Source of the DNA: Escherichia coli
GTDB lineage: Bacteria > Pseudomonadota > Gammaproteobacteria > Enterobacterales > Enterobacteriaceae
Reading direction: 5' to 3' (one strand)
Length of the DNA stretch: 64,000 nt
Assembly: GCF_003334305.1 (NCBI RefSeq)
Contig: NZ_QOWS01000017.1
Position numbers and translations under genes: made by a program. Shown here in pieces: positions 5,224 through 45,841 of this stretch. The notes beneath the pieces were generated by a model. The model searched no databases. It had not been told where the DNA came from and saw nothing but the letters and a program-made list of their open reading frames with translations. Position 1 is the stretch's first letter, and every line of letters begins with the position of its first letter.

Positions 5224-5365
<142 letters not shown>

Positions 5366-24692: not shown

Positions 24693-24693
24693 A

Positions 24694-28016: not shown

Positions 28017-28035
28017 TTACGTATCTTGGCGCGCA

Positions 28036-28054
28036 GTGCTCTCCCCGCCTCGCC
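28036..28054. other. P2/P4-type cos cohesive-end sequence
   Basis: The reverse complement reads GGCGAGGCGGGGAGAGCAC, one mismatch from the recalled 19-nt P2/P4 cos end GGCGAGGCGGGGAAAGCAC. Positioned next to psu as in P4. Confidence 0.7.
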
Positions 28055-28219
28055 CGCCCGCTTTGCGGGGCGGTTTTAATGCAGTTGCACTGACACGCTC
28101 AGACCGCGCCGGGAATGGCGCGGTCTGCAGAAAATGAGTCAGGAAAACGCATGCAAAGCCATGCACCTTATCGATGCATGGCTTTTTTCAGTAAAAACAG
28201 GCGGATTTTTCGGGGAGTT

Positions 28220-28792
28220 TTACACAGACTGACGTGATGCCAGTTCTGCACTTTTACGCGAAAAAATCATGTTCTGCGCAGGGGTGAATTTTTCACGGCT
28301 GTCATCCACCGAAGCCGCGTCAGGCCTGAATCCGATGGTCGTTAAAATGTCGCTATCCTGTGCGGAATAATTAATTTTTTCCCCCTTCGCAAGCCAGGAC
28401 AGAAGGGCTTCACGCAGGGCATCTGTGGCACGCTGTATGGCACAGTTTCGGGCAATGGCCGTCAGCTCACTGTAGCCCATCAGCTCCGGTGCCAGTGCGG
28501 CCGCCAGTGCTGTGCCGTGCTGCTGCATAAAATCATTCAGCCGCTCGCGGATGCTGATGTGCTGAACGGCTTCATGCGAACGAACATAACGACCGGCGGC
28601 CTGATTCACCTGCCATTTTCTGACTTCGATAATATTGCGTAATTCGTCCAGGCGACTGACGTTTCTGCCTTCCCCGGACAGAAGCCGCAGATATTCCTGT
28701 TCGGCTGCCGCCAGTTCATTTTTGCGCTGAAGCCATGCCGCTTTGTTATTCTGGCAGACCTCAAAAGCCTGCTGTAATGACATTGTGGTCAC
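28220..28792 (-). CDS. psu: Psu (polarity suppression / capsid decoration protein)
   Basis: 190 aa, MTTMSLQQAFEVCQNNKAAWLQRKNELAAAEQEYLRLL. Position and length match P4 Psu. Confidence 0.85.
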   Translation of the reverse strand: MTTMSLQQAFEVCQNNKAAWLQRKNELAAAEQEYLRLLSGEGRNVSRLDELRNIIEVRKWQVNQAAGRYVRSHEAVQHISIRERLNDFMQQHGTALAAALAPELMGYSELTAIARNCAIQRATDALREALLSWLAKGEKINYSAQDSDILTTIGFRPDAASVDDSREKFTPAQNMIFSRKSAELASRQSV

Positions 28793-28806
28793 ACCCCGTC
28801 TCCTGA

Positions 28807-29052
28807 TTAATGGTTGAATGGTGAGCTGTAACAGCCTTTAACTTTTCGGACAACAGCCGGTGCTGTGCTTGCCGGTGCTGGTTTTTCCTCCGTGACCGGA
28901 GAACGAATCACGGCACAAATTGACTCATGCGTTTTAAATGTCGCCGAACAGTAAATATTCTGGCACTGCAGATAACTTTCTTTGACATTGTCACTCACAT
29001 ACCGGCTGGTGCGGGTATGCGCTGAATGACGACAGAAAGGGCAGCGCATCAT
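28807..29052 (-). CDS. delta: Ogr/Delta-family zinc-finger late transcription activator
   Basis: 81 aa with CPFC...CQNIYC, the four-Cys arrangement typical of Ogr/Delta. Lies between sid and psu. Confidence 0.8.
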   Translation of the reverse strand: MMRCPFCRHSAHTRTSRYVSDNVKESYLQCQNIYCSATFKTHESICAVIRSPVTEEKPAPASTAPAVVRKVKGCYSSPFNH

Positions 29053-29783
29053 GACAGCAGTCCTCTGGCCTTAAGCACTGCTCCCTGCTGGTCTATTTTG
29101 TCCTGCCACACCTTGCGCTGTGCCGGTGTGCCTGCCACCTCATAATCCATGTGCGGGAGTGTTGCCGCTGACAGTCCGGTCAGCCGGAGAACCGGCTCGC
29201 CGGTGAGGCTGATTTGCATCTGTTTTATTTTCTGTTCCAGCGATGATTTCACCTGCTGCATGACAGCTTTATCGGGTGCGACGTAGCCCTGATGGCCGGT
29301 GGTGTTGGCGAGCGGATTTTCCTGTACCAGGATACTCAGATGCATTGCCCGGACAAGCGCCTCACAGGTTTCATTCAGGGCGTGTTCCAGCTCATGCTCT
29401 GCATACAGACTCAGAAGGTGATGATGTGCCTTCCGGTAGGCGGTGGCCGTGCTGTCACACGCCCCTTTCAGGCGTTCACGTTCAAAATTCAGCACCACGG
29501 CCAGATTGTCATATTCCTGTACCAGCTCCCGGCGTGCCACGCGCTCAATGTGGCGCTGTTTCAGCTCATCGCTCAGGACACCACCGGCTGCACGAAAGGC
29601 CGTGCGCCAGTCGTCAGCGTCGTTTCCGTCGGCCTGCGCCAGCGCATTTTTTTCCTGCTCTGCCCGTTCAATGGCCGTAACGGTCTCATCCATCAGGCGG
29701 GCGTTCTCAAGATGGGCGGCTCTGGACTTTTCCAGTTGTGCCAGTGCGGGTTGCAGATATTCAGGGATAGTGTGGTCAGACAT
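29049..29783 (-). CDS. sid: Sid capsid size-determination (external scaffold) protein
   Basis: 244 aa from MSDHTIPEYLQPALAQLEK, coiled-coil rich. The longer 266-codon ORF start is unlikely because the Ogr/Delta box fits a TSS near 29810. Confidence 0.8.
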   Translation of the reverse strand: MSDHTIPEYLQPALAQLEKSRAAHLENARLMDETVTAIERAEQEKNALAQADGNDADDWRTAFRAAGGVLSDELKQRHIERVARRELVQEYDNLAVVLNFERERLKGACDSTATAYRKAHHHLLSLYAEHELEHALNETCEALVRAMHLSILVQENPLANTTGHQGYVAPDKAVMQQVKSSLEQKIKQMQISLTGEPVLRLTGLSAATLPHMDYEVAGTPAQRKVWQDKIDQQGAVLKARGLLS

Positions 29784-29855
29784 TTTCCGGCTCCTCGTCA
29801 CTTCAGGTTGAGAAAATTGTGACGTACACCGGACAACAACACGACGCATTGCAGA

Positions 29856-29873
29856 TGTGCCAGCCCTGACACA
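29856..29873. promoter_or_regulatory. TGT-N12-ACA activator box (Psid-like late promoter)
   Basis: tgtgccagccctgacaca. Its centre is about 55 bp upstream of a TSS that would lie ~27 nt before the sid ATG. This fits recalled P2/P4 late promoter architecture. Confidence 0.55.
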
Positions 29874-29952
29874 GGAGACTCATCCTCAGACCGGCAAGCC
29901 AGGAAAAGGTCGCAGGAAAAACCGGCTTACTGTTTGTTTTTTTATATTTTAC

Positions 29953-30056
29953 TGTTCACCTCTGTTCACCATAAGAAAAAAGATAAGTAATACAGTAAGT
30001 TAAAGGGTGAACAATCGCAGTAATGACTGTTCACCGTCTGTTCACCACTGTTCACC
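29953..30056. repeat. P4 ori-like iteron cluster (TGTTCACC octamers)
   Basis: Six copies: 29953, 29963, 30028, 30039 and 30049 direct, and 30006 inverted. Recalled alpha-protein type I repeats. Confidence 0.75.
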
Positions 30057-30215
30057 CGTTGATGGGCTTTTTGTGCTGTTTATTACTGTTTGTTTTTATT
30101 AATTCGCCGGGAATGAATAAGAAAAAACGATTTGTATTTCACTATAAAAATTACGAATTGCTTTAAGTGGCTTTAAATGACTTTAAGTGGAGATGAACAA
30201 AAAACACACAAGCAT

Positions 30216-30233
30216 TGTAAGGCTGCCGGAACA
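30216..30233. promoter_or_regulatory. TGT-N12-ACA activator box (PLL-like late promoter toward vis)
   Basis: tgtaaggctgccggaaca, centred ~110 bp upstream of the vis ATG and divergent from Psid. Confidence 0.5.
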
Positions 30234-30335
30234 AATCCCCCCTGTTGCGTCTGCTGAAAATATTCACAAAATAAAACGCTACCCGAAGCCGGACGGACTT
30301 ATCCGGTGCTGTATGGACATTAACGAGGTAGCCCG

Positions 30336-30602
30336 ATGCAAGCTGTTTTTTCTTCCCCGTCTCCTGCCCCTGTGACGCCACTGATGCCGCTGCCGGACAT
30401 CACACAGGAGCGTTTTTTACGTCTGCCGGAAGTGATGCACCTGTGCGGCCTGTCACGCTCGACCATCTATGAACTTATCCGTAAGGGGGAATTTCCGCCG
30501 CAGGTGAGTCTTGGCGGTAAAAATGTGGCCTGGCTGCACTCTGAAGTCACCGCATGGATGGCCGGGCGCATTGCCGGACGCAAACGGGGGTACGACGCAT
30601 GA
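30336..30602 (+). CDS. vis: Vis / AlpA-family excisionase-regulator
   Basis: 88 aa. MerR-like w[49 protein letters not shown]. Same length as P4 orf88 (Vis). Confidence 0.8.
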
Positions 30603-30637
30603 TGATGCCCGCTCTGCAAAAAGTCCCTTTTTCTGGC

Positions 30638-30667
30638 TTGCCTTTTTCCGGCATTTGCGGATATAGT
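30638..30667 (+). promoter_or_regulatory. candidate PLE-like sigma70 promoter
   Basis: TTGCCT - 18 nt - TATAGT immediately downstream of vis, where P4 places its early/immunity promoter (recalled). Confidence 0.35.
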
Positions 30668-30991
30668 TTTTCCGTTGCCGCAAAATCGGCAGCCGGGCGT
30701 GAGAACCCGTGTAACTCGAAGGCGACATATGACGCGCCATGCGTCTTTTTTTGTGTCGCAATCAACGCCACAGAGCGCCAGATTATGGTGTGGCGTGTGG
30801 TTTGCCGTGCAGGTATGATCCTGTTCGCAATCGCATGTTATGCCACTGAGTCAATGGTAGCTCAGGCGGGGCAGCCTCCGGGCTGGCCGGTATTCTTCGA
30901 GGCCGGTATTCTCACCCCCGTCTGGGCTATCGCCATCGAGCGTGAGAACTCCGGCGATAGCAGTTATTTGCTACTCGAAGGAGGCTGCCTT

Positions 30992-31189
30992 ATGGCTACA
31001 ACCCTTACCCCCTCACACCCTGAATTTGTCTTTGTGTTTGCGGCTGTCCGTCGCGCAGACCGTCATCCCCGTATCTGCATGCTTCGCACCGTCGCCGGTG
31101 ATGAACGCAGCGCCCGCCGTTCCCTTGTCCGTGACTATGTGCTCTCCCTTGCTGCCCGTCTGCCGGTGGTGGAGGTGTCCCGTGCGTAA
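30992..31189 (+). CDS. Icd-like / P4 kil-region small protein
   Basis: 65 aa [45 protein letters not shown]... with a strong RBS gaaggagg 6 nt upstream. Resembles proteins annotated as Icd-like cell-division inhibitors in P4-like elements (recalled). Confidence 0.5.
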
Positions 31190-31469
31190 TAAAAAAGCCC
31201 CTCAGACCGTCTCAGCACGTCATGACGCCCGTGAACACCTCAGCATTGAGGCTTACCATAAGCTCAACCGCGCCAGCTCCGTATCCCAGTTTGTTGGGGG
31301 TGATTTGATTCACCGTGAACTCTCCGGCCTGCATCAGCTCTACATTCCGCATATTTTCAGCTACCTGAATGAAGATATTGATTTTGTGCTGAATGAGCTG
31401 AAAGCCAAAGGCCTGTGCCGCGATTTTCTCGCCCAGCAGAAAGACCGGGGAGACAGGACGCATGTTTGA
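31182..31469 (+). CDS. eps: Epsilon-like antirepressor (derepresses P2-type helper)
   Basis: 95 aa from a GTG preceded by ggaggtg. Position directly upstream of orf151 as in P4. Confidence 0.6.
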
Positions 31470-31917
31470 TTTTCCCCAGCCCGGTGAGATTTACCGTTCT
31501 GCCGGTTTTCCCGATGTGGCCGTGGTCGGCATTCTGGAAGACGGTATTCCGTGGGAAATGCCGTACCGCTGCCCGGACATTGTCTGGAACCCGTACCGCC
31601 GTAAATTCAGTATCCTTGTGCGTATCCTCGCTGACGGACGCACCACAGACATCCCGCTGGGGCGTTTTCTGCGGGAATTTACCTGTGACCGTCCTGACCT
31701 GTTTAAACGCAGCCCCGTAAACCGGCATGCGGTACTGAAAGAAATGGCCGGAGACCCGGAATTACAGAAATGGCGGGAAAAATATCTGGATATTTACCCG
31801 CAGGCCCCTGTTCCGGTCAGCCGGGCGGCACCGGTGGCGCGGGAATGGCGGGAAATTCCCCGCACGGAGCCTGACCCGGAAATCACCCCGGATAACAGTT
31901 ACCGCAATTATCTGTAA
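31462..31917 (+). CDS. P4 orf151-like protein
   Basis: 151 aa. The start overlaps the epsilon stop. Same length and position as P4 orf151. Confidence 0.65.
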   Translation: MFDFPQPGEIYRSAGFPDVAVVGILEDGIPWEMPYRCPDIVWNPYRRKFSILVRILADGRTTDIPLGRFLREFTCDRPDLFKRSPVNRHAVLKEMAGDPELQKWREKYLDIYPQAPVPVSRAAPVAREWREIPRTEPDPEITPDNSYRNYL

Positions 31918-32052
31918 TTAAAAAACGACACCCGAAAAATTAAATGTGCGTATTCGCGCAGGGATACGCACGTCTTCAGGAGACGCAGATATGCCTTATC
32001 AGTTAATGCAACCGGCACGGAATGCAGTCATCTGTCACAGGGAGGAAAGCAA

Positions 32053-32373
32053 ATGAAAACCCCCTTACCGCCCGTCTTACGCGCAGCCCTTTACCGTCGC
32101 GCTGTCGCCTGTGCCTGGCTGACCGTGTGCGAACGTCAGCACCGCTACCCGCATCTCACCCTTGAATCACTGGAGGCGGCCATCGCCGCTGAGCTGGAAG
32201 GCTTTTATCTGCGCCAGCACGGTGAGGAAAAAGGGCGTCAGATAGCCTGTGCCCTGCTGGAAGATTTAATGGAATCCGGCCCCCTGAAGGCCGCGCCGTC
32301 GCTGTCCTTTCTCGGGCTGGTTGTGATGGATGAACTCTGTGCCCGTCACATAAAAGCGCCGGTACTGCACTGA
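32053..32373 (+). CDS. conserved P4-family hypothetical protein upstream of alpha
   Basis: 106 aa with RBS gggagga. Same position, and as far as I recall the same length, as a P4 left-operon ORF. Confidence 0.55.
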
Positions 32374-32387
32374 AGGAGAACAACACC

Positions 32388-34721
32388 ATGAAAATGAACG
32401 TAACCGCCACCGTCAGCCATGCACTCGGCCACTGGCCGCGTATTCTCCCGGCGCTGGGGATTCAGGTGCTGAAAAACCGTCATCAGCCCTGTCCGGTCTG
32501 TGGCGGGAGTGACCGCTTCCGTTTTGATGACAGGGAGGGGCGCGGCACCTGGTACTGCAATCAGTGTGGTGCCGGTGACGGCCTGAAACTGGTTGAAAAG
32601 GTGTTTGGTGTTTCCCCGTCCGACGCGGCCGCAAAGGTGGCTGCCGTGACCGGCAGCCTGCCACCGGCTGACCCGGCAGTGACGGCCGCCGCCGTTGCTG
32701 AAACAGACGCTGCCCGGAAGAACGCCGCCACACTGGCACAAACCCTGATGGCGAAAACCCGTACCGGAACCGGTAACGCCTACCTGACCCGCAAGGGCTT
32801 TCCCGGCCGGGAATGCCGGATGCTGACCGGCACACACAGAGCCGGTGGCGTGAGCTGGCGCGCCGGTGACCTTGTGGTGCCACTGTATGACGACAGCGGC
32901 GAACTGGTTAACCTTCAGTTAATCAGTGCTGACGGCCGTAAGCGCACCCTGAAAGGCGGACAGGTCAGGGGCACCTGTCACACCCTTGAAGGACAGAATC
33001 AGGCCGGAAAACGTCTGTGGATAGCGGAGGGATACGCGACCGCACTTACCGTACATCACCTGACCGGTGAAACGGTGATGGTGGCGCTTTCTTCCGTGAA
33101 CCTCCTTTCTCTGGCCAGCCTTGCCCGGCAGAAGCATCCGGCCTGTCAGATTGTCCTTGCCGCAGACCGTGACCTCAGCGGTGACGGCCAGAAAAAAGCC
33201 GCCGCAGCCGCAGATGCGTGTGAGGGCGTTGTTGCCCTGCCGCCGGTCTTCGGTGACTGGAATGATGCCTTCACGCAGTACGGCGGGGAGGCCACCCGTA
33301 AGGCCATTTACGATGCCATCCGGCCACCGGCTGAAAGCCCGTTCGACACCATGAGCGAAGCAGAGTTTTCCGCCATGAGTACCAGCGAAAAGGCCATGCG
33401 TATCTATGAGCATTACGGTGAGGCGCTCGCGGTCGATGCCAACGGCCAGCTTCTGTCTCGCTATGAAAATGGTGTCTGGAAGGTGCTGCCGCCACAGGAC
33501 TTTGCCCGGGATGTGGCCGGGCTGTTTCAGCGTCTGCGCGCGCCGTTCTCCTCCGGGAAGGTGGCCTCCGTGGTGGACACCCTGAAGCTGATTATTCCGC
33601 AGCAGGAAGCCCCCTCCCGCCGCCTGATTGGCTTTCGTAACGGTGTGCTCGACACACAGAACGGCACGTTCCACCCGCACAGTCCGTCACACTGGATGCG
33701 CACCCTGTGCGATGTGGATTTCACCCCGCCGGTGGACGGTGAAACGCTGGAGACCCACGCCCCCGCGTTCTGGCGCTGGCTTGACCGTGCCGCCGGTGGC
33801 CGTGCGGAAAAACGCGACGTGATTCTGGCCGCACTGTTTATGGTGCTGGCAAACCGCTATGACTGGCAGCTCTTTCTGGAGGTGACCGGTCCCGGCGGCA
33901 GCGGCAAAAGTATCATGGCCGAAATAGCCACCCTGCTGGCCGGGGAGGATAACGCCACGTCGGCCACCATTGAGACGCTGGAATCCCCGCGTGAACGTGC
34001 CGCGTTAACTGGCTTCTCACTGATACGCCTGCCGGACCAGGAAAAATGGAGCGGCGACGGTGCCGGACTCAAGGCCATCACCGGCGGCGATGCGGTGTCC
34101 GTTGACCCGAAATACCGGGATGCATACTCCACGCATATCCCGGCGGTGATTCTGGCCGTGAACAATAACCCGATGCGCTTCACCGACCGCAGCGGCGGCG
34201 TGTCACGCCGGCGGGTGATTATTCACTTCCCGGAACAGATAGCCCCGCAGGAGCGCGACCCGCAGCTTAAGGACAAAATCACCCGCGAGCTGGCGGTCAT
34301 CGTGCGTCACCTGATGCAGAAGTTCAGCGACCCGATGCTCGCCCGGTCACTGCTTCAGTCCCAGCAGAACTCAGACGAGGCGCTGAACATCAAACGGGAT
34401 GCCGACCCGACGTTTGATTTTATCGGCTATCTGGAAACCCTGCCGCAGACCAGCGGCATGTATATGGGGAACGCCAGTATCATCCCGCGTAATTACCGTA
34501 AATACCTCTATCACGCCTATCTGGCCTACATGGAGGCAAACGGCTACCGGAATGTACTCAGTCTGAAAATGTTCGGGCTGGGGCTGCCGGTGATGCTGAA
34601 GGAATACGGACTGAATTACGAGAAGCGCCATACCAAACAGGGGATACAGACCAACCTGACGCTGAAAGAGGAAAGCTACGGCGACTGGCTGCCAAAATGT
34701 GACGACCCTGCAACAACCTGA
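32388..34721 (+). CDS. alpha: Alpha primase-helicase-origin binding protein
   Basis: 777 aa. Zinc-ribbon CPVCGGSDRFRFDD...WYCNQCG, TOPRIM primase region, Walker A GPGGSGKS helicase domain. Confidence 0.9.
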   Translation: MKMNVTATVSHALGHWPRILPALGIQVLKNRHQPCPVCGGSDRFRFDDREGRGTWYCNQCGAGDGLKLVEKVFGVSPSDAAAKVAAVTGSLPPADPAVTAAAVAETDAARKNAATLAQTLMAKTRTGTGNAYLTRKGFPGRECRMLTGTHRAGGVSWRAGDLVVPLYDDSGELVNLQLISADGRKRTLKGGQVRGTCHTLEGQNQAGKRLWIAEGYATALTVHHLTGETVMVALSSVNLLSLASLARQKHPACQIVLAADRDLSGDGQKKAAAAADACEGVVALPPVFGDWNDAFTQYGGEATRKAIYDAIRPPAESPFDTMSEAEFSAMSTSEKAMRIYEHYGEALAVDANGQLLSRYENGVWKVLPPQDFARDVAGLFQRLRAPFSSGKVASVVDTLKLIIPQQEAPSRRLIGFRNGVLDTQNGTFHPHSPSHWMRTLCDVDFTPPVDGETLETHAPAFWRWLDRAAGGRAEKRDVILAALFMVLANRYDWQLFLEVTGPGGSGKSIMAEIATLLAGEDNATSATIETLESPRERAALTGFSLIRLPDQEKWSGDGAGLKAITGGDAVSVDPKYRDAYSTHIPAVILAVNNNPMRFTDRSGGVSRRRVIIHFPEQIAPQERDPQLKDKITRELAVIVRHLMQKFSDPMLARSLLQSQQNSDEALNIKRDADPTFDFIGYLETLPQTSGMYMGNASIIPRNYRKYLYHAYLAYMEANGYRNVLSLKMFGLGLPVMLKEYGLNYEKRHTKQGIQTNLTLKEESYGDWLPKCDDPATT

Positions 34722-34728
34722 CCCACCT

Positions 34729-34753
34729 GACCGGCATCTGCCGGTCTTTTTTT
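34729..34753 (+). terminator. intrinsic terminator after alpha
   Basis: gaccggca-tc-tgccggtc followed by T7. Confidence 0.7.
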
Positions 34754-34767
34754 ATCCCTGAATTCCC

Positions 34768-35070
34768 CGAAGGTGAACAATCCACTGTTCACCCTTCACC
34801 GTATATTCACCCGTTATCACACTGAAATTAAAAGAGAAAAACGAAAGGTGAACAGTGTGAACAATCAAATCAAAAAAAACTTTTTTCTTCCTGAGTGATT
34901 TCAGCACGGGAAATTAATCCCCTGCACAAGTCACACCGGCAGAATGCCGGAGGTGAAGAATCGAATGTTCACCCTTCACCCATTATTCACCACCTATCCA
35001 ACTGAAATAAAAGGAGAAAACAGAAAGGTGAACAGTGTGAACAGTTCTTTCGAAAAAAAATTTTTTTCTT
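34768..35070. repeat. crr-like cis replication region: two ~120-bp direct repeats with TGTTCACC/GGTGAACA octamers
   Basis: 34768-34885 and 34948-35065 align nearly base for base (ggtgaa[c/g]aatc..tgttcacccttcacc..attcacc..gaaaggtgaacagtgtgaaca). About 4.8 kb from the ori cluster, as in P4. Confidence 0.75.
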
Positions 35071-35184
35071 ATTTTTAATTGTGCGAAAAACAAGCGACAC
35101 ACGCAGTGTGTATAGATATGTGTATAGTTATATTTTTTGAATATTATAATGTATTACAAATCAATGTGTTAGCTTGTAATATTC

Positions 35185-35205
35185 ACTCCTATTATCGGCA
35201 CCATC
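35185..35205. repeat. att core copy 2 (attR of P4-like element = attL of second island)
   Basis: Exact 21-bp copy of the thrW 3' end. Confidence 0.85.
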
Positions 35206-35270
35206 AAGAAAATCAATAACTTAGCTTAACTTCTCTAAGAAATTGTATCTTCTGTTATCACTTACAAACG

Positions 35271-35675
35271 CCTATACGTTGTTATGGGCTTTGGTAGTGT
35301 AACACGTATGGGCGAGTAGTTCCCAGGCTCAACCTCGTAACAAGTTCCTTTGAAGCTGGAAGACGTGCCACCGTCTCTAAACCTTCTACCAAAACTCTTA
35401 GCAAGATGTTCCACACCTGGCGCGGTGTCCAATGATGCTACACGTCGTGAGACGTTGCAGAGGATAAACAGGCTAAATGATGGGAAGAGTTTTAAGTGCA
35501 ATAGTGGATTAAAGCCCACCTCTTCAAAACCTAACTTGATCGGGAAAGAATCAAGCTCTAGCACGGTTTCGTCCACCGGAGTACAACGGGTGCCTGATAA
35601 GAGAAGAACTGCTAAGACTTCATAGCTTTTGTGAAAAAGCCCTTTTTAGTGGATACGCCTACGGCGCTTATTTTT
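35271..35675 (+). ncRNA. candidate structured non-coding RNA (class unknown)
   Basis: GC-enriched patch in AT-rich DNA. Contains a 13-bp hairpin (35271-35311), GUGA-capped hairpins (35442-35455 and 35625-35640), 6-bp helices (35484-35525 and 35535-35555), and a weak stem plus T6 at 35656-35676. The only ORFs here are two mutually antisense ones without RBS. Confidence 0.3.
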
Positions 35676-35808
35676 TGGTATAACCATCAAAGGCGCTTTA
35701 TGGCTCCTATTGTCTTGAAAATGTATCTTTACTTGTATTGTGTTTTATGCGTAGTCTCCCTGTGTAGTATGTAACTTGTTAATTTTCATATGAATACAGA
35801 GGCACACG

Positions 35809-35967
35809 ATGAAAAACATTGCAGCTATCAAACGGAATAACCGCAAGATTCACGCTCGTAAGTTCCTGTCTACGCCAGAAGGAAAAGCCTGGCTAGAGCG
35901 TAAACAGAGAGAAAACGAAGAAAGAAAACTCCTTAGTGAGTTGAAATGGCTTAGAGAGGATTTCTGA
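35809..35967 (+). CDS. small basic hypothetical protein (52 aa)
   Basis: MKNIAAIKRNNRKIHARKFLSTPEGKAWLERKQRENEERKLLSELKWLREDF. Weak RBS (gagg). Below the size cutoff of the ORF track. Confidence 0.3.
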   Translation: MKNIAAIKRNNRKIHARKFLSTPEGKAWLERKQRENEERKLLSELKWLREDF

Positions 35968-36310
35968 AAATCTCCAGAACGCAACAGGACGCATTCTAAC
36001 GCTGTTTTCATTACTCGGTATAGGGATTATAGGTGATGTGTGTTTAATGCGTCTGTGAGCTTGTTTTGTGCCTTATTTTGCATTTTCATAATGCAGGAGA
36101 GAACACGGAAAGCCTTAAAATTAATTATTGGGGTATTTAAGGCTATTTTTAGGTTATTTAAGGGTATTAAACTTGATTTAATTGATTGAAATATAAACAG
36201 ATAATTATGTATCTTATTGATTTATAAGGTTATTTTTAAATAAAGGTAAATAAAAAATAAATAGCCATAAATAGCTATAAATACATCTAAATACCTATAT
36301 CCCTTCCCTT

Positions 36311-36694
36311 ATGGCTAGATTGCGAGAAGTGCTTAACGCGATTTTCAGCGCCCCCCGATCTGGAAAATCCAGAATCCCCAAATATCAGCAAGGAATTTTC
36401 TTGCGTAATCAACATCGTTTTTACCTATTAAATCATTACACAGAAAGCCTTTCTGTAATGTCTCTCACTAAACTTTCACTAAACACGAGAATGATCGGTT
36501 TTATGTCGGATCAGATGCTAGAAATAGCACCACGTCTCACAAGGGCTGTAAGCGATGAAACCAGTGTTTATGCGGGTGCAGGTCAAAATATAGGCCAAAA
36601 TACATTTAACATAATAAACGTAATATGCACTAAGGAACACATAGAACGCCTTGAGTTGATGTATCAGGGGAAAAGTGGTGGATTTTTTACGTAG
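36311..36694 (+). CDS. hypothetical protein
   Basis: 127-codon ORF with no recognisable domain and no clear RBS. An internal start at MSLTKLSLNTR is possible. Confidence 0.3.
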   Translation: MARLREVLNAIFSAPRSGKSRIPKYQQGIFLRNQHRFYLLNHYTESLSVMSLTKLSLNTRMIGFMSDQMLEIAPRLTRAVSDETSVYAGAGQNIGQNTFNIINVICTKEHIERLELMYQGKSGGFFT

Positions 36695-36713
36695 GAGCAC
36701 GAGAGGGCTTCTA

Positions 36714-36741
36714 TTGACTTTTGTATGCTATGAAATATAAT
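36714..36741 (+). promoter_or_regulatory. candidate sigma70 promoter
   Basis: TTGACT - 16 nt - TATAAT. It overlaps the putative start of the 36730 ORF, so one of the two calls is probably wrong. Confidence 0.35.
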
Positions 36742-36999
36742 AGAAGGTTTTTTTATGTTGATAGTGATTGCACATTAAAGATTGAAAGCAAATTTAAACA
36801 TAAATTTTCAACACGTGAAAGAGAACTTGTTCGACAAATGATAAAACGTTTATTGAGCAACAATTTTGCAGTGATGCGCTATATGCCGAATTACACAAGG
36901 CTTTGCGAAAGTGATGTAAAAGTGAAGAAAGTAAGAATTGCAACTTTAAGCTACTTTTCATTGAATTTTTTAGTATGGAATTACACAGGAATAAGTTAG
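36730..36999 (+). CDS. hypothetical protein (doubtful)
   Basis: 89-codon ORF from ATG 36730. No domain recognised. The 3' end runs into the TTACAC motif field. Confidence 0.2.
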   Translation: MKYNRRFFYVDSDCTLKIESKFKHKFSTRERELVRQMIKRLLSNNFAVMRYMPNYTRLCESDVKVKKVRIATLSYFSLNFLVWNYTGIS

Positions 37000-37084
37000 G
37001 GATATTCTATGATTTACACAGGGAATATAGGGGGATTATGGCACACACATAGAAAGACATTACACAAAGTGCTATGTGACAAAT

Positions 37085-37305
37085 GGATGTAACGAGAGGT
37101 TACATTCAGCTATCTGAAATGCTCTCTGTAAGAAAGTTGGTAGTAACGATATGTTACATAGACTAATTATTGAATGTAACGATATTACACATCGGTAGTA
37201 ACGATACGTTACATCGACTAATTATTGAATGTAACGATATTACACATCGGTAGTAACGATACGTTACATCGACAGATGATTGGATGTAACGAAAGGTTAC
37301 ACAAT
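37085..37305. repeat. iteron array: 55-bp tandem repeats carrying GTAAC-N5-GTTAC palindromes
   Basis: Units at 37139-37193 and 37194-37248 differ at 2 positions. A third partial unit runs 37249-37302, with a further palindrome atgtaacgagaggttacat at 37087-37105. That makes about 7 palindromic or half-palindromic sites. Confidence 0.85.
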
Positions 37306-37500
37306 AAGACTATATTATTTATAATACTAAATAAAACTATATTAGATTATTAATTAGATCATAATAATATTCTTTATATCTATATATATGATCTTTTGCC
37401 TTCCGGCGTTAGCTTCACTCCCTGGCAAGCAGCCTTACTCCGCTACCTTTCGGGCTACGTTGGCTGGCCCGTTCCGCTCACACCGAAAGCAAAGCGTTAC

Positions 37501-37542
37501 TTTCTTCGTGTAACTATCGTGGCGGTAACGCCCACGAAGAAA
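37501..37542. other. long hairpin with GNRA-capped inner helix inside a GC-rich patch
   Basis: tttcttcgtg (37501-37510) pairs perfectly with cacgaagaaa (37533-37542). Inner ggcg-GTAA-cgcc at 37521-37532. Confidence 0.5.
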
Positions 37543-37624
37543 TACTATTGCGCTGTGCGCAGAAGAGTAATCACCTAACCAATCATAGATTGCTTATGTG
37601 TTAACTCTCTCTACCTCTTAATTC

Positions 37625-37776
37625 CACTTCCTACATTTAATAACTCTGTTATTCTCTGTAGTTGTGTAATTACTCGAAGAGAGAGCGGCTAAAGCTCAAT
37701 TACACTCTGCTTTCCTCGTGTAAGTTCACTAAGCCTCAATACAATTTCACTTCCTACATTCTGTAGTCGTGTAATT
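37625..37776. repeat. dispersed direct repeats (cacttcctacatt and ctgtagtYgtgtaatt)
   Basis: cacttcctacatt at 37625 and 37748. ctgtagttgtgtaatt at 37656 and ctgtagtcgtgtaatt at 37761. The modules are adjacent in copy B and 18 bp apart in copy A. Confidence 0.75.
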
Positions 37777-38398
37777 GTTTTCGGTGGAAAAGCCAGAGGC
37801 GACACCGAAAGAGAATTCTGATCTTATTAATCTTATCTATCTTAGTTAATCTTCTTACTTTATCTACTTTATTATTAATAATAGCTTTATAAGCTCTGTG
37901 TAGCTCTCTGACGCAAGAAACAGCATTCAGGAAGGGAATCACCTTAGAAAAGGTGTTCTTTGCGTCATAATGTGTTTTATGAAGGATTCAGAGGTGTTTC
38001 ATAACAGGAATGTATAGAGGATATTTTAATTAATTAAAAATAAGGGGTCTAAATGCTTCTCTAACAACATTAAGCAGGGTAGGGAATGGAAACGCATTGC
38101 CTACATATAATAAGCTCACTACAGGGCTTTACAGAGCGTTTTATAAAGTGACTCTCTGTTTTATATTTACCATTACCTTTTCATATACCTAACAAATACA
38201 AAATAAGCCCCTTCAATAAGCCTCTGGCGAGCGAAACAGCCATTAGATAAGGGAATGTATTGCTTTTATCAAAATCTCGTCAGAATGCGATTGAGAGTGT
38301 TTTAGCGGATAATGAAGAATAGCACTACATAGAAGAGCACGAATTGTTAAGCAAAATCATAACATACTGAAAAAGATCAGTTTTTTTGTGAAAAGGTA

Positions 38399-38427
38399 TT
38401 GACAAACGTCTCTTTCTGTGCAATAAT
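38399..38427 (+). promoter_or_regulatory. strong sigma70 promoter P1 (extended -10)
   Basis: TTGACA - 17 nt - TGcAATAAT, followed by agg-TATTAG-aGGGG. Paralogous to the promoter at 40928. Confidence 0.65.
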
Positions 38428-38486
38428 AGGTATTAGAGGGGACAGGAATAGATTCTTATCCTCTAAATAATTAAACCAATGCACCG

Positions 38487-38526
38487 CACTTTGAAGCCCA
38501 AGAGGCTTGCAAGGTGTTTTTTCTTT
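38487..38526 (+). terminator. intrinsic terminator ending the P1 leader
   Basis: Interrupted stem (acttt-g-aagcc / ggctt-gc-aaggt) followed by gTTTTTTCTTTT. Ends 29 nt before the first ATG of the operon. Confidence 0.6.
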
Positions 38527-38554
38527 TAACCAAATCGAATAAGGAGGCTAATTA

Positions 38555-38753: not shown

Positions 38754-38921
38754 ATGAGCGAAACTAAGAAACCAATTCCGCGCACTTACCTTCACGTTGA
38801 CCCTGAAATCTTCAAGGTTTTATTTGCTGAAGCCAAGAAAAGGCAAATTATGGTCAGTGATTTGATGTTAGAAATCATTACTGAAGCAGCAGAGAACATC
38901 AAACAAAAAAAGGGTAAGTGA
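38754..38921 (+). CDS. ribbon-helix-helix (Arc/CopG-like) DNA-binding protein
   Basis: 55 aa from the ATG after gaaggag. The pattern PRTYLHVDPEIFKVLFAEAKKRQIMVSDLMLEIITEAAENI fits strand-helix-helix. Confidence 0.5.
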   Translation: MSETKKPIPRTYLHVDPEIFKVLFAEAKKRQIMVSDLMLEIITEAAENIKQKKGK

Positions 38922-38974
38922 TCCTCATTCACTTTAGTAGCGCATTAAGCGTGATTTATAAGGAGATGATTCTA

Positions 38975-39718
38975 ATGTCTAAAATTAAATTGATTCGTGA
39001 AAAATACCAGTATGTTGATAAACAAACAGGAGAAATTAAAGACCGAACTTTGAATATACCGCATTACTTTTGTGAGATTGAATTTATCTACTCCTCAAGT
39101 GTTGATGGTGGAAAAGTTAAGTTTAGTGCAGAAATGCAAAAATTATATTGCTATGTTTCAGATTGGGAGAAATCAGGGGGGATATGTTTTGAAACACAAA
39201 CGAAGTTAAGTAAAGTTTGTGGCTGTAGCCGTAAGACAGTTAATGAACTGATTGGTCTTATGATTAAAATCGGTCTTTTAGAAGAGGTCGGAGAACGAAT
39301 TCCAAAACGTCCTTTAAAATTACGTGCGCTACCTCTCACAGATGCACATATTACTCCCCCAGGAGAATCATCACTCTCTGATCTTTCTGAGGCAGAAGAA
39401 GCACAGGAACAACCTAAAGGCCATAAACAGCCTTCTTTTGATGTTCTTGATGATTGGGATGCGCCTTTACCGTGGGAGACGGAAGAAACACCTGTTTCAT
39501 CAAGTGAAAAGGTAGCTAATGATAATGAGGAGGATGTATTAGAGAATTTTGCCTCTCTTATCATCCAGGAGAAACACACAAGAACAGGAGGAGCATCATT
39601 TATTGAGTTTGCAAATTCACTAGCTTATAGATACGGGCTAAAACGACCAAATGGTATTGAGGCATATTTTTCTAAGAATTACCCAAATGTATATGATGAA
39701 TTTGATATTCCCTTTTAA
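38975..39718 (+). CDS. wHTH replication-initiator-like protein with acidic linker
   Basis: Start after taaggag. The segment LYCYVSDWEKSGGICFETQTKLSKVCGCSRKTVNELIGLMIKIGLLEE resembles HTH_36-type plasmid/phage Rep N-domains (recalled pattern). Has an acidic D/E/S-rich middle. Confidence 0.45.
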   Translation: MSKIKLIREKYQYVDKQTGEIKDRTLNIPHYFCEIEFIYSSSVDGGKVKFSAEMQKLYCYVSDWEKSGGICFETQTKLSKVCGCSRKTVNELIGLMIKIGLLEEVGERIPKRPLKLRALPLTDAHITPPGESSLSDLSEAEEAQEQPKGHKQPSFDVLDDWDAPLPWETEETPVSSSEKVANDNEEDVLENFASLIIQEKHTRTGGASFIEFANSLAYRYGLKRPNGIEAYFSKNYPNVYDEFDIPF

Positions 39719-39729
39719 TAAGGAGGACT

Positions 39730-40009
39730 ATGATTCAATATTTAGTAAAAAAATCAAGTAGACAGAATTCAGTGTAATGACACAGGAAAACGCATCTACG
39801 AAACACTTGCTTACCTCTATAAAGGAAAGCCAACACCGCTAAAATATAGCGATGTGTTACATCGAGCAGGGTGCTCTGAAGCTGGTTTAAAATTCTGGCT
39901 GAAACAGCTATCAAATTTCGGTGTTATTGAAATGAAAGAGCTGTCTTTTTCTACATTCAATCTCAAAAGATTAGATAAAGAAATAGAATTCATCTATTCC
40001 ACTCTCTAA
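39730..40009 (+). pseudogene. wHTH protein gene interrupted by a frameshift in an A7 run (or using programmed slippage)
   Basis: Strong RBS taaggagg then ATG 39730. The frame closes at 39777. The +1 frame stays open to 40009 and encodes ...GKRIYETLAYLYKGKPTPLKYSDVLHRAGCSEAGLKFWLKQLSNFGVIEMKE. The switch point is A7 at 39747-39753. One fewer A gives a continuous 92-aa ORF. Confidence 0.5.
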
Positions 40010-40050
40010 AATCTCTCTATGTAATTAAAATATAAAAGGAAAACATTATT

Positions 40051-40170
40051 ATGATAGTAGCTATGTATTGGTTATTGTTCTTTCTCACGTTAGAAGCATA
40101 CTTTGGGGTGTTTTCCTTTAAAAGAAAAGGAAAAGTAAATAATGGCAAAAAGAAAAAACAACGTTGTTAA
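40051..40170 (+). CDS. small hydrophobic peptide with polybasic tail (39 aa)
   Basis: MIVAMYWLLFFLTLEAYFGVFSFKRKGKVNNGKKKKQRC: one TM helix plus a K-rich tail. RBS-like aagga 10 nt upstream. Overlaps the next ORF by 29 nt. Confidence 0.3.
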   Translation: MIVAMYWLLFFLTLEAYFGVFSFKRKGKVNNGKKKKQRC

Positions 40171-40558
40171 GAAAATCGGTGATTCAGCTTCTCTTCTAAG
40201 TAAACCTAAACCTAAATCTATTCTAAGACGTAAAGACTTTAAAGAGCTAGTTACGCTCACCAAGCAAAATAGCGCCCCTGGCGAATGGAAAACAGAGATC
40301 ATAGAACATTCTCCCTCTGTGCCTTGTGGAGATGAATTTAACGCCTTGCAAGAAATCTTATCTTCAACACCTGGCGTATTCTGGAAACCTAGAAAAAGAA
40401 AAGAGTATATCGTTGATAGCTCTGATTTACGCAAATACCAGATTTTAGGATTTGAAGATTATAACCACTACGTCGGTTATCTCGCCACCAATGGCCTAAA
40501 TAATTTAGTTCCTGAATTCCAAATTTTAGATAATGCTGATCACTATGGAGACTTTTAA
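40142..40558 (+). CDS. hypothetical protein with basic N-terminus
   Basis: 138 aa in the same orientation as the operon. No domain recognised. Confidence 0.5.
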   Translation: MAKRKNNVVKKIGDSASLLSKPKPKSILRRKDFKELVTLTKQNSAPGEWKTEIIEHSPSVPCGDEFNALQEILSSTPGVFWKPRKRKEYIVDSSDLRKYQILGFEDYNHYVGYLATNGLNNLVPEFQILDNADHYGDF

Positions 40559-40559
40559 T

Positions 40560-40898
40560 ATGAACAAAAACACGTATGACACAATTTATTCACTAATTAA
40601 TTATTATGAGGATGATTACCTCCTGCCTTTAAACCGCGCTGAACTTGAAGCATACAAAGAAAACACGCCAGGGGCGCTAAATGAGGCGTTTAAACACTGG
40701 GATTTAGCTGTGAATGCCTTTGAGCACCTTTCTAAAAGAGTAGAGATGCTCTGTAAGCGTGAAAACGCATACCTGACAGCCGATCAGATATGGGAGCTAT
40801 CAAACTGGATAGAAGATATTGAATCTGATGTTCGCTATGTAGGGGATGGCCTGGTTGAATTAGCTCAACGCTTAGGCGCTACTATCACAGAAGAATAA
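40560..40898 (+). CDS. hypothetical protein
   Basis: 112 aa from an ATG 2 nt after the upstream stop. Helical and acidic. No domain recognised. Confidence 0.5.
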   Translation: MNKNTYDTIYSLINYYEDDYLLPLNRAELEAYKENTPGALNEAFKHWDLAVNAFEHLSKRVEMLCKRENAYLTADQIWELSNWIEDIESDVRYVGDGLVELAQRLGATITEE

Positions 40899-40927
40899 AA
40901 AAAGCAACAAAAAAGTTGTAAAATATC

Positions 40928-40956
40928 TTGACATTCCATCTATTGTATGTTAATAT
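40928..40956 (+). promoter_or_regulatory. strong sigma70 promoter P2 (extended -10)
   Basis: TTGACA - 17 nt - TGtTAATAT, followed by aat-TATATA-GGGG. Same layout as P1. Confidence 0.65.
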
Positions 40957-41094
40957 AATTATATAGGGGTGATTATTTTTCCTTTATTGGTTCGATATTA
41001 AAAATTCTTCCTGTCATTAAAGGGGAGTAAAATCTCCGCTCCCCGCTTCTCCTCCTTAAGTAAATACTGTGTCATTATACCTCTTTTTTCCTTT

Positions 41095-41124
41095 GTTATG
41101 CATACATCTTGGAGTATGCATAAC
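41095..41124. other. perfect 10-bp inverted repeat in the P2 leader
   Basis: gttatgcata-catcttggag-tatgcataac. Confidence 0.6.
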
Positions 41125-41153
41125 ATAGGGTAATTACATAGGTATGAGTTAAT

Positions 41154-41185
41154 AAAAGGCGGCTCTAAATGCTGCCTTTTATTTT
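41154..41185 (+). terminator. intrinsic terminator ending the P2 leader
   Basis: aaaaggcggc-tctaaat-gctgcctttt (10 bp including one G-U) followed by ATTTT. Ends 63 nt before ATG 41248. Confidence 0.65.
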
Positions 41186-41247
41186 GCCCGTTATGCAACT
41201 TAAAAGTTGTATTTCTTACTTTAAAAAAGGTAACAAGGTTTATATAA

Positions 41248-41460
41248 ATGTTGTTTTTAAACGATAAAGAGCAAATCATCAAGTATAAAGATGAAATGCT
41301 GAAAATTAATCCACAAATTACCGAAATGGTAGCTAAATACGCTGGGTGTTCTGTCGAGGAAGTAGAAAGATGTGTTGAAAAATATTTTTCTCCTTCTACT
41401 CCGTCTACACCTTCCCTTAATGAATTAATCAAATTAAAAGCTAAGGAGATTACTAAATGA
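41248..41460 (+). CDS. small hypothetical protein
   Basis: 70 aa. First gene after the P2 leader. The stop overlaps the next start (ATGA). Confidence 0.5.
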   Translation: MLFLNDKEQIIKYKDEMLKINPQITEMVAKYAGCSVEEVERCVEKYFSPSTPSTPSLNELIKLKAKEITK

Positions 41461-41819
41461 TTATTGATTTAGACACTCTGTTTCCAGTTAGAAAGACTTT
41501 CACAGATATTGTAAGTTATTGTACTGATCCGTTTGCCTCTGTAGAAAGCAAGGTTTTTGCTTCTCTTCCTGCTGATGTTGAGTGCGGCGACTTGATCACC
41601 AGTACTGGCGCTAAATATGAATCAGGAGATGATATCTATGTTGTTATGAGTGAATTTGTAACGGCTGGAGAAAACAAGCCTGTAGATGTGCTACGTAGTA
41701 ATGCTGGTCTTGTCTGCATCAAAGCTGATGCGCTGAATGCTGTAAGTGAAGCAGCAAAAACAGCATTAATTAAAAAAGGCTTCCAGCTTGAAGGGTTCCA
41801 TTCTGTTTTCACTTCTTAA
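41457..41819 (+). CDS. head-decoration-like protein (lambda D-like position and size)
   Basis: 120 aa directly upstream of the capsid-like gene. The size and G-rich beta-type pattern loosely resemble lambda gpD-type decoration proteins. The call is based on synteny. Confidence 0.4.
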   Translation: MIIDLDTLFPVRKTFTDIVSYCTDPFASVESKVFASLPADVECGDLITSTGAKYESGDDIYVVMSEFVTAGENKPVDVLRSNAGLVCIKADALNAVSEAAKTALIKKGFQLEGFHSVFTS

Positions 41820-41837
41820 TAAAAGGAATAATAATAA

Positions 41838-42869
41838 ATGATTCTAGGTAATGATTACGTTGATTTAGCTCCGCTTTTCCAGGCACACAGCACTAGAAAC
41901 TTTCTGCTCTCTACCCTCGACTTCACTGATCCGGTGGGCGTTAGTTCTCATAAAGTAGCTGTTTCTCAGCTTGTCGAAAGCAACGAATCTCTGTTCAACA
42001 AAGAAACCTCTCGTTTCTCTTCTGAACACAATGTTACTAAGCGTGAACAAGGTAAAGAATGGCTGATTGAAATCCCGTATTTTCTTCGTGAAGATGTGAT
42101 CCGTCCTTCTGATGTTCAAGGCAAGCGTAAGCCTGGCACTGATTTTCAGGAAACACTCACTGATATCTATGCGGAATATATCGCTAAACACCACGTAGCG
42201 TATCAGCGTACAAAAGAGAGCGTGTTGGCTGCATCTCTGTTTAGCGGTAAAACTTACACGCCTAAAACTGATGATGTTCTTATCGAGTGGGGCAAGCTGT
42301 TTAACGTGGCACCTATGAAAGCCACCTTGAACGCTTCCAGCACTGACACAATGACCGTTTTCAAGCAATTTGACCAGCTTGCTACGGATATGATTGCTAA
42401 GGCACAAAACCAGGCTGCAACCATTGAGCGTGTTGTTGTGTTCTGTAAACCTGCGGCATTCAACGCTATTCGTTACAGTGTTGGTATGGTCAATGCTTTC
42501 CAATATGCAAGCCCTGTAGACGATGCCAACGTGGTGTTTAATGTGCGTTCCCTGCTACCAGGTGTAACTACTTTCACCATTCCAGGAACTAACATTGACC
42601 TGATCAAAGTGACTGATCCGCTACACCTTGCACATATGGCTTCTGATGCGGTTGCTGTGCCTAAATTCGCTAAGGGGGCAGGTGTTTACCAATCTATCTA
42701 TGGGGCAGCTTCCAGCACCTTTGAACTGATCAATGCCGCTCCTGCTGAGGTGTATAGCTATAGCTATGAATCTTCTTCTCGTGGTGATGCTGTTAACGTT
42801 GTTACAGAGAATAGCCAGATGGTGGTAAACCACGGCGTTGGTTTCTCCGTTCAAATCACTGTTAAATAA
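41838..42869 (+). CDS. major capsid protein, lambda gpE-like family (putative)
   Basis: 343 aa (lambda gpE is 341 aa). N-terminal LAPLFQAHSTRNFLLSTLDF resembles the P.TFLLDTFF motif I recall from Phage_cap_E proteins. RBS aaaggaa. Followed by a strong terminator. Confidence 0.5.
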   Translation: MILGNDYVDLAPLFQAHSTRNFLLSTLDFTDPVGVSSHKVAVSQLVESNESLFNKETSRFSSEHNVTKREQGKEWLIEIPYFLREDVIRPSDVQGKRKPGTDFQETLTDIYAEYIAKHHVAYQRTKESVLAASLFSGKTYTPKTDDVLIEWGKLFNVAPMKATLNASSTDTMTVFKQFDQLATDMIAKAQNQAATIERVVVFCKPAAFNAIRYSVGMVNAFQYASPVDDANVVFNVRSLLPGVTTFTIPGTNIDLIKVTDPLHLAHMASDAVAVPKFAKGAGVYQSIYGAASSTFELINAAPAEVYSYSYESSSRGDAVNVVTENSQMVVNHGVGFSVQITVK

Positions 42870-42887
42870 TATTTTAACGTGTAATAG

Positions 42888-42922
42888 AGGCGTGGCGTGA
42901 ATAACACGCTTCGCCTTTTTTT
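42888..42922 (+). terminator. intrinsic terminator after the capsid-like gene
   Basis: aggcg-tg-gcgtg aataa cacgc-tt-cgcct followed by T6. Confidence 0.7.
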
Positions 42923-42955
42923 ATTTATTTTTAAATTTTGAGAGGTGATTAAAAT

Positions 42956-43159: not shown

Positions 43160-43173
43160 TAAGGGGATTTTAA

Positions 43174-45012: not shown

Positions 45013-45046
45013 TTCCCGCCATAACATTACAAGGAAAATTATTATT

Positions 45047-45760: not shown

Positions 45761-45801
45761 CCGTAAACGCCTCTAAAACGCTCTGTAACGATGTAATTAT
45801 A

Positions 45802-45834: not shown

Positions 45835-45841
45835 ATTGTGT

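Follow-up and report, generated by a model that had tools for sequence, protein, structure and literature searches.

The origin of ColE1-like plasmids has been placed in a transcribed, protein-free region that lies upstream of the mob genes and carries an RNA II promoter of the TTGACA type, and the curated set of such plasmids includes pPSAS1522, pTYM1, and pYMH5 (Ares-Arroyo et al., 2021; PMC8683028). The Rfam model RNAI (RF00106) represents the enterobacterial type of RNA I, with three stem-loops, and the RNA I of Pasteurellales has two (PMC8683028). For the small qnrD plasmids typed as Col3M, the replicase is unknown and the replication mechanism is uncharacterised (PMC3913671). Here we describe a non-coding element in a stretch of 64,000 nucleotides of Escherichia coli DNA (contig NZ_QOWS01000017.1 of assembly GCF_003334305.1; hereafter, the window), where it lies in the first 500 nt of a 12-kb island integrated downstream of the tRNA-Thr gene thrW. 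An earlier note on this DNA, made from the letters alone, had proposed a structured RNA of ~400 nt in this place. Our analysis indicates that 35262-35721, on the + strand, is probably an RNA II-like preprimer with a replication origin at its 3′ end, serving the excised island. The element is best explained as a member of a divergent ColE1-like lineage that would also hold the Col3M/qnrD plasmids, pEP03, the pSUH-6-like plasmids, and Pasteurellaceae plasmids.

To define the core architecture, individual sequences were folded between conserved anchors, and the resulting helices were then tested on alignments (coordinates are collected in Table 1). In a structure-blind MAFFT alignment of 42 diverse cores, 75.8% of the cells were paired, compared with 31-36% when the partners were slid, and the covariation score was 0.223 against at most 0.124; the score of 0.223 was reached in 0 of 500 shuffles. 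A covariance model of the 133-position core (R1) recovered 76 loci at E<=1e-6, and in the R1-based alignment of these 76 sequences, 78.1% of the cells were paired (31-37% with slid partners), including 206 double-change cells. Among 25 non-redundant sequences, pairing in the 5′ domain reached 94% for hairpin 1 and 98% for hairpin 2, and each position showed 3-4 types of pair. For hairpin P3, which was evaluated without an alignment, all 6 of 6 pairs were present in 70 of 87 sequences, made by 24 different stems, and in only 1 of 87 after shuffling. The long-range helix CAGG/CCTG becomes CGAG/CTCG in two lineages, and pseudoknot S2, in which the loop of stem S1 pairs with the four bases just 5′ of CCTGAT, covaries as GATC/GATC, AGCC/GGCT, GGCC/GGTC, GCTC/GAGC, and ACGC/GCGT. 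These comparisons support the view that the element is a real, strongly conserved, pseudoknotted structured RNA of the + strand.

RNAalifold independently recovered the long-range helix from the mixed-subtype MAFFT alignment, and with this alignment and one based on a hidden Markov model (HMM) it returned only that helix, or a wrong one. We attribute the shortfall to subtypes that are offset by 1-2 columns, and not to absence of the structure, and the inner helices were therefore defined from the per-sequence folds. A permissive alignment-free test of the S2 pseudoknot also yielded alternative registers and carries no weight here, and a first pseudoknot idea, in which a segment 5′ of P3 pairs with the P3 loop, reached only 63-65% pairing and is not claimed.

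The + strand was assigned because the tetraloops are canonical only there, and because hairpin 1 contains about 20 G.U cells, which would be A.C mismatches on the opposite strand. In one subtype, a mini-hairpin is capped by UUCG, GAAA, GCAA, or UAAC. Covariation by itself does not separate RNA from single-stranded DNA (ssDNA), and over the whole core the excess of G.U over A.C is modest (97 vs 68 cells). Single-strand initiation (ssi) signals are orientation-specific, have several stem-loops over 100-200 nt, and are found beside plasmid origins, and the element might accordingly be read as an ssDNA structure that primes the lagging strand, such as a G4-type ssi, a primosome assembly site, or a rolling-circle single-strand origin (sso). 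We regard this as very improbable, since the interchange of UUCG, GAAA, and GCAA, the nested pseudoknots, and the T-loop-like S1 loop are hallmarks of RNA (the S1 loop, e.g., TTCGATC in relatives, recalls the tRNA T-loop by eye only), and since G.U-rich helices such as hairpin 1 are tolerated on one strand. The plasmid relatives described below also speak against it: no Pfam family at all, rolling-circle Rep included, was found in the tested open reading frames (ORFs) of pSUH-6, p7WGR351, and pPROV103-2, and in pPSAS1522 a ColE1-like promoter appears to direct transcription through the element.

The proposal of a non-coding structured RNA in the earlier note was thus borne out by the covariation, the pseudoknot, and the tetraloop swaps on the + strand, although two of the checks it suggested were negative. 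The minimum free energy z-scores of the single sequence were -0.32 (+ strand) and -0.66 (- strand), so that structure was no greater than in shuffled controls, and Rfam 15 gave no match in 35204-35800 at gathering thresholds and no family even at E<=10, where the sole overlap was a chance-level SNORA22 hit (35675-35814; 18 bits, E=9.5, gathering score 80). Taken alone, these two results would have wrongly dismissed the element; the signal above chance was comparative, with paired cells and scores far above the slid and shuffled controls. The note could assign the region to no RNA family, and Rfam indeed has none; its placement just inside the left attachment site (att), which repeats 18 nt of the thrW 3′ end, also holds. 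The stretch is also more GC-rich than its AT-rich flanks, as noted (0.41-0.49, vs 0.29-0.31 upstream and 0.21-0.39 downstream). The local helices listed are all present in the sequence at the positions given, but they do not all belong to the conserved structure: the GAAGAG/CTCTTC insert is restricted to the window's subgroup and L007, and the hairpin at 35625-35640 to one subtype. The extent of ~400 nt was nearly right, the conserved module being slightly larger.

Two overlapping ORFs, 35350-35625 (+) and 35262-35576 (-), exist in the window, and one of them might be a real gene conserved at the protein level. However, most indel runs relative to the window would break a reading frame, their lengths not being divisible by three (689 and 256 vs 227). 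In 91 distinct homologues, the longest stretch without a stop ranges between 49 and 115 aa, and neither ORF has a Pfam match. Substitutions are compensatory across helices and not codon-periodic. The coding reading is effectively excluded, in agreement with the earlier note, which had believed neither ORF.

To evaluate how widely the element is distributed, diversity was sampled through homologues of the island's capsid protein and the contigs that encode them, and through DNA-pattern scans. Of 5426 complete E. coli genomes, 510 carry the element region. Diverged copies (92%, 74%, and about 80% identity) occupy the corresponding position behind tRNA-Thr, tRNA-Leu, and tRNA-Gly. Because it follows three different tRNA genes, the element belongs to the island and not to the host. 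Through the capsid homologues, similarly organised islands were identified in Klebsiella, Enterobacter, Citrobacter, Cronobacter, Dryocola, and Sodalis, and in almost all of these islands an iterated nhmmer profile detected the element at the left end. The core DNA pattern was detected on >120 metagenome contigs and 33 IMG/VR contigs, and 127 of 135 new loci were confirmed. No match for the element was obtained by blastn against a phage database.

The two parts of the element are not equally conserved. The 3′ ~260 nt, comprising core and tail, are universal, whereas the 5′ ~170 nt occur in at least two unrelated conserved versions among the islands. Islands at thrW and leuX have the type 1 domain, those at tRNA-Gly have a second conserved domain in its place, and the plasmids have yet another. 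In the tRNA-Gly islands (L007, L008, L075, L079, L085, L089, and L090), the alternative domain takes up the first ~240 nt and opens with a covarying hairpin directly after the tRNA. Since core and tail are common to three tRNA sites and to plasmids without an integrase, the comparison argues against a role of 35435-35721 as an att arm, an argument that does not extend to 35204-35261. In one Enterobacter island, a second copy of the RNA core was seen immediately beyond the integrase end (L082:15405-15536), which suggests a tandem or remnant element. In the most distant island (L074, from Sodalis; capsid 41% identical), a large serine recombinase lies at the left side, and the 10 kb examined yielded no copy of the RNA element.

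The distant subgroup among the metagenome loci consists of mini-plasmids. When the mini-plasmid version was compared with PLSDB by blastn, 325 plasmids were found, mostly of 1.7-6 kb, including Col3M-typed qnrD plasmids of Proteus, Providencia, and Morganella, tiny plasmids of E. coli, Klebsiella, Salmonella, and Enterobacter, Erwinia pEP03, and Pasteurellaceae sul2/strA plasmids. The R1 model matched pCGS13/Col3M (1.5e-21), pEP03 (3e-15), pSUH-6 (5e-15), p7WGR351 (2e-14), and pPSAS1522 (55.9 bits, E=2e-13). The island nhmmer profile matched pEP03 at 1.9e-21, spanning core and tail, and its positions 391-468 matched the tail of pPSAS1522 (2587-2664). The related plasmids (1.7-4.2 kb) carry unrelated cargo and, by blastn, have essentially only this segment of ~220-450 bp in common; further short common stretches were found only between pSUH-6 and pEP03, and three plasmid pairs were without any blastn match. 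No Rep-like annotation is present on pCGS13. Because essentially only this segment is shared and no Rep is recognisable in the four smallest of them, the mini-plasmids of 1.7-2.7 kb, the origin should lie within or overlap the segment, and the lack of a known replicase in the qnrD/Col3M plasmids fits a replicon made of RNA only. Furthermore, pEP03 encodes a genuine Rop (PF01815, 1.3e-25), the protein of the RNA I/RNA II kissing complex. The homology of core and tail to what appears to be the replication region of small ColE1-like and Col3M plasmids went unnoticed in the earlier note, and with it a definite mechanism can be proposed for what had been a structured RNA of no known kind.

On the - strand of pSUH-6, in the region 5′ of the core (L228:849-877), there is a promoter-like sequence, GTGACA-17-TAGGAT with an upstream TG, and a copy-control transcript of the RNA I type would start at this antisense site. 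Other kinds of structured RNA (an IS-associated guide RNA such as omega RNA or bridge RNA, and a retron) were prompted by the multi-copy contig L157 and were rejected, since L157 is a concatemeric mini-plasmid assembly, no reverse transcriptase or nuclease is consistently adjacent, and there is no such Rfam match.

A further link with ColE1-type replication is seen in pPSAS1522. Its promoter, TTGACA-17-TAATCT at 1925, is near-identical to the ColE1 RNA II promoter, TTGAGA-17-TAATCT, and some 150-290 nt downstream of this promoter comes the core, which has the same strand and is directed at mobC as in ColE1. The element is homologous to the origin region of an accepted ColE1-like plasmid, as seen with the covariance model on pPSAS1522 and on the Rop-encoding pEP03, and with nhmmer on pEP03. 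By eye only, there is also a colinear resemblance to ColE1 (AACAGG, a GGGAAA-loop hairpin, GGTTTCG.CCACC, TCTGAC, and GGGGC..TATGG..AAAA). Islands and plasmids alike retain the tail motif GTCGC..GCTCCG-(T-rich loop ..ACCACCA)-CGGGGCTTTATGGCTTCTATTGTCTAAAA, and the conserved tail (T-rich-loop hairpin, then GGGGCTTTATGG...AAAA) resembles the ColE1 origin GGGGGGCGGAGCCTATGGAAAAACGCC, again only by eye. The gene order around rop in pEP03 would have placed the element on the opposite strand if ColE1 gene order held, and was rejected as a guide because of the direct strand evidence from tetraloops, G.U pairs, and the promoter and mob orientation of pPSAS1522. A Xer/cer site was considered and rejected as well: no 11-6/8-11 Xer core is present, and covarying RNA-type loops do not fit such a site.

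From these comparisons we infer that the element is transcribed, that it primes replication with the help of DNA polymerase I (Pol I) and RNase H, on which it would depend, and that the excised island makes use of it. In the scheme we favor, the 12-kb island would excise from thrW, and host RNA polymerase would transcribe the element inward from the att side. The pseudoknotted core would then fold and position the 3′ tail (the hairpin with the T-rich loop, then GGCGCTTTATGG...) for a persistent RNA-DNA hybrid, which host RNase H and Pol I would turn into a primer. The leading strand would run rightwards into the island, and no initiator encoded by the element would be required. Copy control and incompatibility would reside in the variable 5′ domain, as the target of an antisense RNA. 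From sequence reading alone, a short U-rich run follows the island's hairpin 1 on the - strand, and within the + strand 5′ domain the loop of hairpin 2 possibly pairs with TTGAAGC at 35350-35356.

Several observations weigh against this scheme. Canonical ColE1 RNA II gave no nhmmer match at E<=10 and no covariance model match at E<=1, blastn and nhmmer with a ColE1 RNA II query did not find the related mini-plasmids, and RF00106 matches ColE1 only, neither the window nor the related plasmids. The 5′ domain of the island is unrelated to the plasmid 5′ domains by nhmmer. The spacer at 35204-35261 is the expected place for the promoter of the RNA, and promoter searches with a tool and by eye found no sigma-70-like site on the + strand between att and hairpin 1. 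In pPSAS1522, the putative oriV given by Ares-Arroyo et al. (L230:2430-2445) lies about 150-220 bp upstream of the conserved tail (2587-2664), and the site of the RNA-DNA transition in Pasteurellaceae plasmids may need re-examination. The island encodes an HTH_36/replication-initiator-like protein, so that it may not need a second origin. Moreover, a ColE1-type origin that is active within the chromosome of a polA+ cell is harmful, so that silence of the element would be required for as long as the island stays integrated.

The position of the element directly against att suggests that its upstream neighbourhood may be altered by excision. A further reading is tentative and, in our view, somewhat unlikely. 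The core (~130 nt) and tail would then represent an undescribed class of structured RNA, a portable, initiator-free replicator that is exchanged between mini-plasmids, the qnrD/Col3M plasmids among them, and an undescribed family of integrative, capsid-encoding satellites, and that is gated by att in the islands. Such a replicator would be silent or differently read when integrated, and would fire only once excision joins the sequences of the integrase end to it.

The element could instead be a structured non-coding RNA with another job, either a leader or attenuator acting in cis or an RNA acting in trans in maintenance, immunity, or copy control, with replication located elsewhere. Co-oriented genes do follow the RNA, and the weak stem and T-run at 35656-35676, like a terminator-like site at the equivalent place of pPSAS1522, could act as an attenuator. 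The island has an initiator-like protein of its own and a long AT-rich region in which an origin could lie, and the neighbouring P4-like satellite, with C4/isrK, shows that satellites use small regulatory RNAs. However, the downstream genes differ among islands (the 52-aa ORF, HNH, and others) and among plasmids, the mini-plasmids have essentially only this segment in common and the smallest are without a recognisable Rep, and the Rop of pEP03 points to RNA-controlled priming. We consider this alternative, the main one, unlikely, and continue to favor the preprimer with its 3′ origin.

Table 1. Features of the RNA element and of the thrW locus in the window.
Feature	Position	Strand	Remarks
tRNA-Thr (thrW)	23283-23358		followed by P4-like satellite
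P4-like satellite	23359-35185		alpha primase, crr repeats, C4/isrK RNAs
C4 RNA region of P4-like element	30661-30937		Rfam
Alpha primase of P4-like satellite	32388-34721		
crr iteron repeats of P4-like satellite	34773-35078		
att	35186-35203	+	18-nt copy of thrW 3′ end, exact repeat
AT-rich spacer, att to first helix	35204-35261	+	partly conserved TTATCA..TACAAA.GCC
Conserved module	about 35262-35721	+	~460 nt
5′ domain, type 1	35262-35434	+	hairpins 1-3
Hairpin 1	35270-35278 / 35305-35313		GCCTATACG / CGTATGGGC; 5′ domain
Hairpin 2	35313-35316 / 35334-35337		conserved loop TAGTTCCCAGGCTCAAC; 5′ domain
Hairpin 3	35361-35365 / 35372-35376		5′ domain
Helix ACACC/GGTGT	35413-35428		
Universal core	35435-35606	+	covariance model R1: 82.1 bits, E=5e-21
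GNRA-capped hairpin ACGTC-GTGA-GACGT	35442-35455		core
GGATAAACAGG with long-range helix CAGG/CCTG	35469-35472 / 35593-35596		core
Insert hairpin GAAGAG/CTCTTC	35484-35525		core; lineage-specific
Hairpin P3 CTTGAT-CGGGAAAGA-ATCAAG	35535-35555		core; GCTCT next
Stem S1 CGG/CCG	35564-35566 / 35576-35578		core; 9-nt loop
Pseudoknot S2 GTCC/GGGT	35571-35574 / 35588-35591		core; then CCTGATAAG
3′ tail	35607-35721	+	presumed origin
Hairpin GCTTTT-GTGA-AAAAGC	35625-35640		tail; only one subtype
Terminal hairpin GGCGC/GCGCT	35663-35667 / 35693-35697		tail; T-rich loop
T-run	35671-35676		tail
TTATGG, CTCCTATTGTCT, A-run	35698-35703 (TTATGG)		3′ end of tail
52-aa very basic ORF	35809-35967	+	directly downstream of RNA element
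Tyrosine integrase, DUF6538 type	45842-47206	-	Pfam PF00589 + PF20172; PHROG integrase
attR of 12-kb island	47262-47279	+	ACTCCTATTATCG-CACCA; imperfect, 1 base shorter than att

The att at 35186-35203 is both the left edge of the 12-kb island and the right edge of the upstream P4-like satellite, and the island runs from 35204 to attR, the sequence of which was read directly in the window and agrees with L003 12415-12446. Two distinct satellite-like elements thus stand in tandem at thrW (23283-47279), and repeats of the tRNA 3′ end flank each of them. Where the P4-like element is missing, as in many E. coli strains, the island abuts thrW directly. Pfam and PHROG identify among its genes those for the HTH_36/replication-initiator-like protein and for lambda-E-type capsid, tape-measure-like, and Dit-like proteins, and found no terminase or portal among the proteins of the 12-kb island. 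The integrase sits at the far end, with the RNA element at the integrase-distal end, and in the excised circle the integrase would adjoin attP opposite the RNA element and be transcribed away from it.

Related islands form a family of 12-13 kb (window 38918-47206 and L074-L090) found in at least 7 Enterobacterales genera. The family encodes E-like capsid, tape-measure-like, Dit-like, and HTH_36 rep-like proteins and a DUF6538 integrase, without terminase or portal, and may represent an unrecognised family of phage satellites; no publication on it was found in the literature searched. The 52-aa ORF that follows the RNA element is probably a real gene, judging from its 81% identity over 37 aa to the ORF in the same position of the diverged island L005. 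It is annotated as a hypothetical protein in RefSeq genomes, and an HNH gene takes its place in other family members. It is similar to Rop in size, without a sequence match to Rop. Downstream of it, 35970-38550 is ORF-poor and very AT-rich (GC down to 0.21), and varies among strains. At this position, relatives carry a FimB-like tyrosine recombinase of 186-205 aa, or a small serine recombinase, with HNH/Dam-type cargo, and these genes precede 1.5-2 kb without ORFs, so the region could be an invertible switch or a hotspot for cargo or defence genes. Elsewhere in the window, and unrelated to the element, Rfam matched IS009 at 53636-53835 (202 bits) and naRNA4 at 5232-5309 (76 bits).

If the preprimer reading is correct, it would provide a concrete replicon for the Col3M/qnrD plasmids, which are clinically relevant, and for many cryptic Enterobacterales plasmids of 1.7-3 kb. 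It would also define a conserved RNA fold, with a long-range helix, a pseudoknot, and tetraloops, for a divergent ColE1-like branch, and the covariance model could detect such replicons where sequence profiles and Rfam fail. A satellite-like island that roughly one in ten complete E. coli genomes contains would then have, at its att-proximal end, a plasmid-type origin that depends on host polymerase, raising the question of how an integrated origin of the ColE1 type is silenced. We know of no described satellite family (P4-like, PICI, cfPICI, PLE, or PICMI) that replicates in this way. No description of the element or of the island family was found in the literature searched, and the fold, which is undescribed and without an Rfam family, and its presence in an integrative, capsid-encoding, satellite-like island appear to be unreported there.

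Among known systems, the C4 antisense RNA of P4 (CI/C4) is similar in being a non-coding RNA of a phage satellite at a tRNA locus. In contrast to the element, which has ~460 nt, no Rfam model, and a relation to plasmid origins, C4 is an immunity RNA of ~80 nt with an Rfam model. RNA II and the origin of ColE1/pMB1 share with the element a protein-free replicon of about 450-550 nt and a structured transcript that leads toward the origin, where a T-rich-loop hairpin is followed by a G-rich..TATGG..A-run end; through its relatives, the element is also linked to Rop (pEP03) and to the RNA II-type promoter and mob orientation (pPSAS1522). ColE1/pMB1 differ in that neither sequence nor structure is similar to a statistically detectable degree, that the element has no RNA I match, and that it resides beside att in a chromosomally integrated island and not on a plasmid. 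To our knowledge, a pseudoknotted multi-helix core fold has not been described for RNA II. The Col3M qnrD plasmids of Proteeae (2.7 kb) have the same core (covariance model E about 1e-21) and a similar tail, but their 5′ region and spacing differ from those of the island, and they are plasmids that are not integrated. The Pasteurellaceae ColE1-like plasmids (pB1000, pIG1, pLS88, and pPSAS1522; PMC8683028) differ from the island in having a two-stem-loop RNA I region in place of the 5′ domain and about 350 nt inserted between core and tail. Nevertheless, their core and tail are homologous to those of the island and are arranged in the same architecture, and the parts of the core that pPSAS1522 has in common with the island include TAAACAGG, the hairpin, GCTCT, the pseudoknot, and CCTGATAAG.

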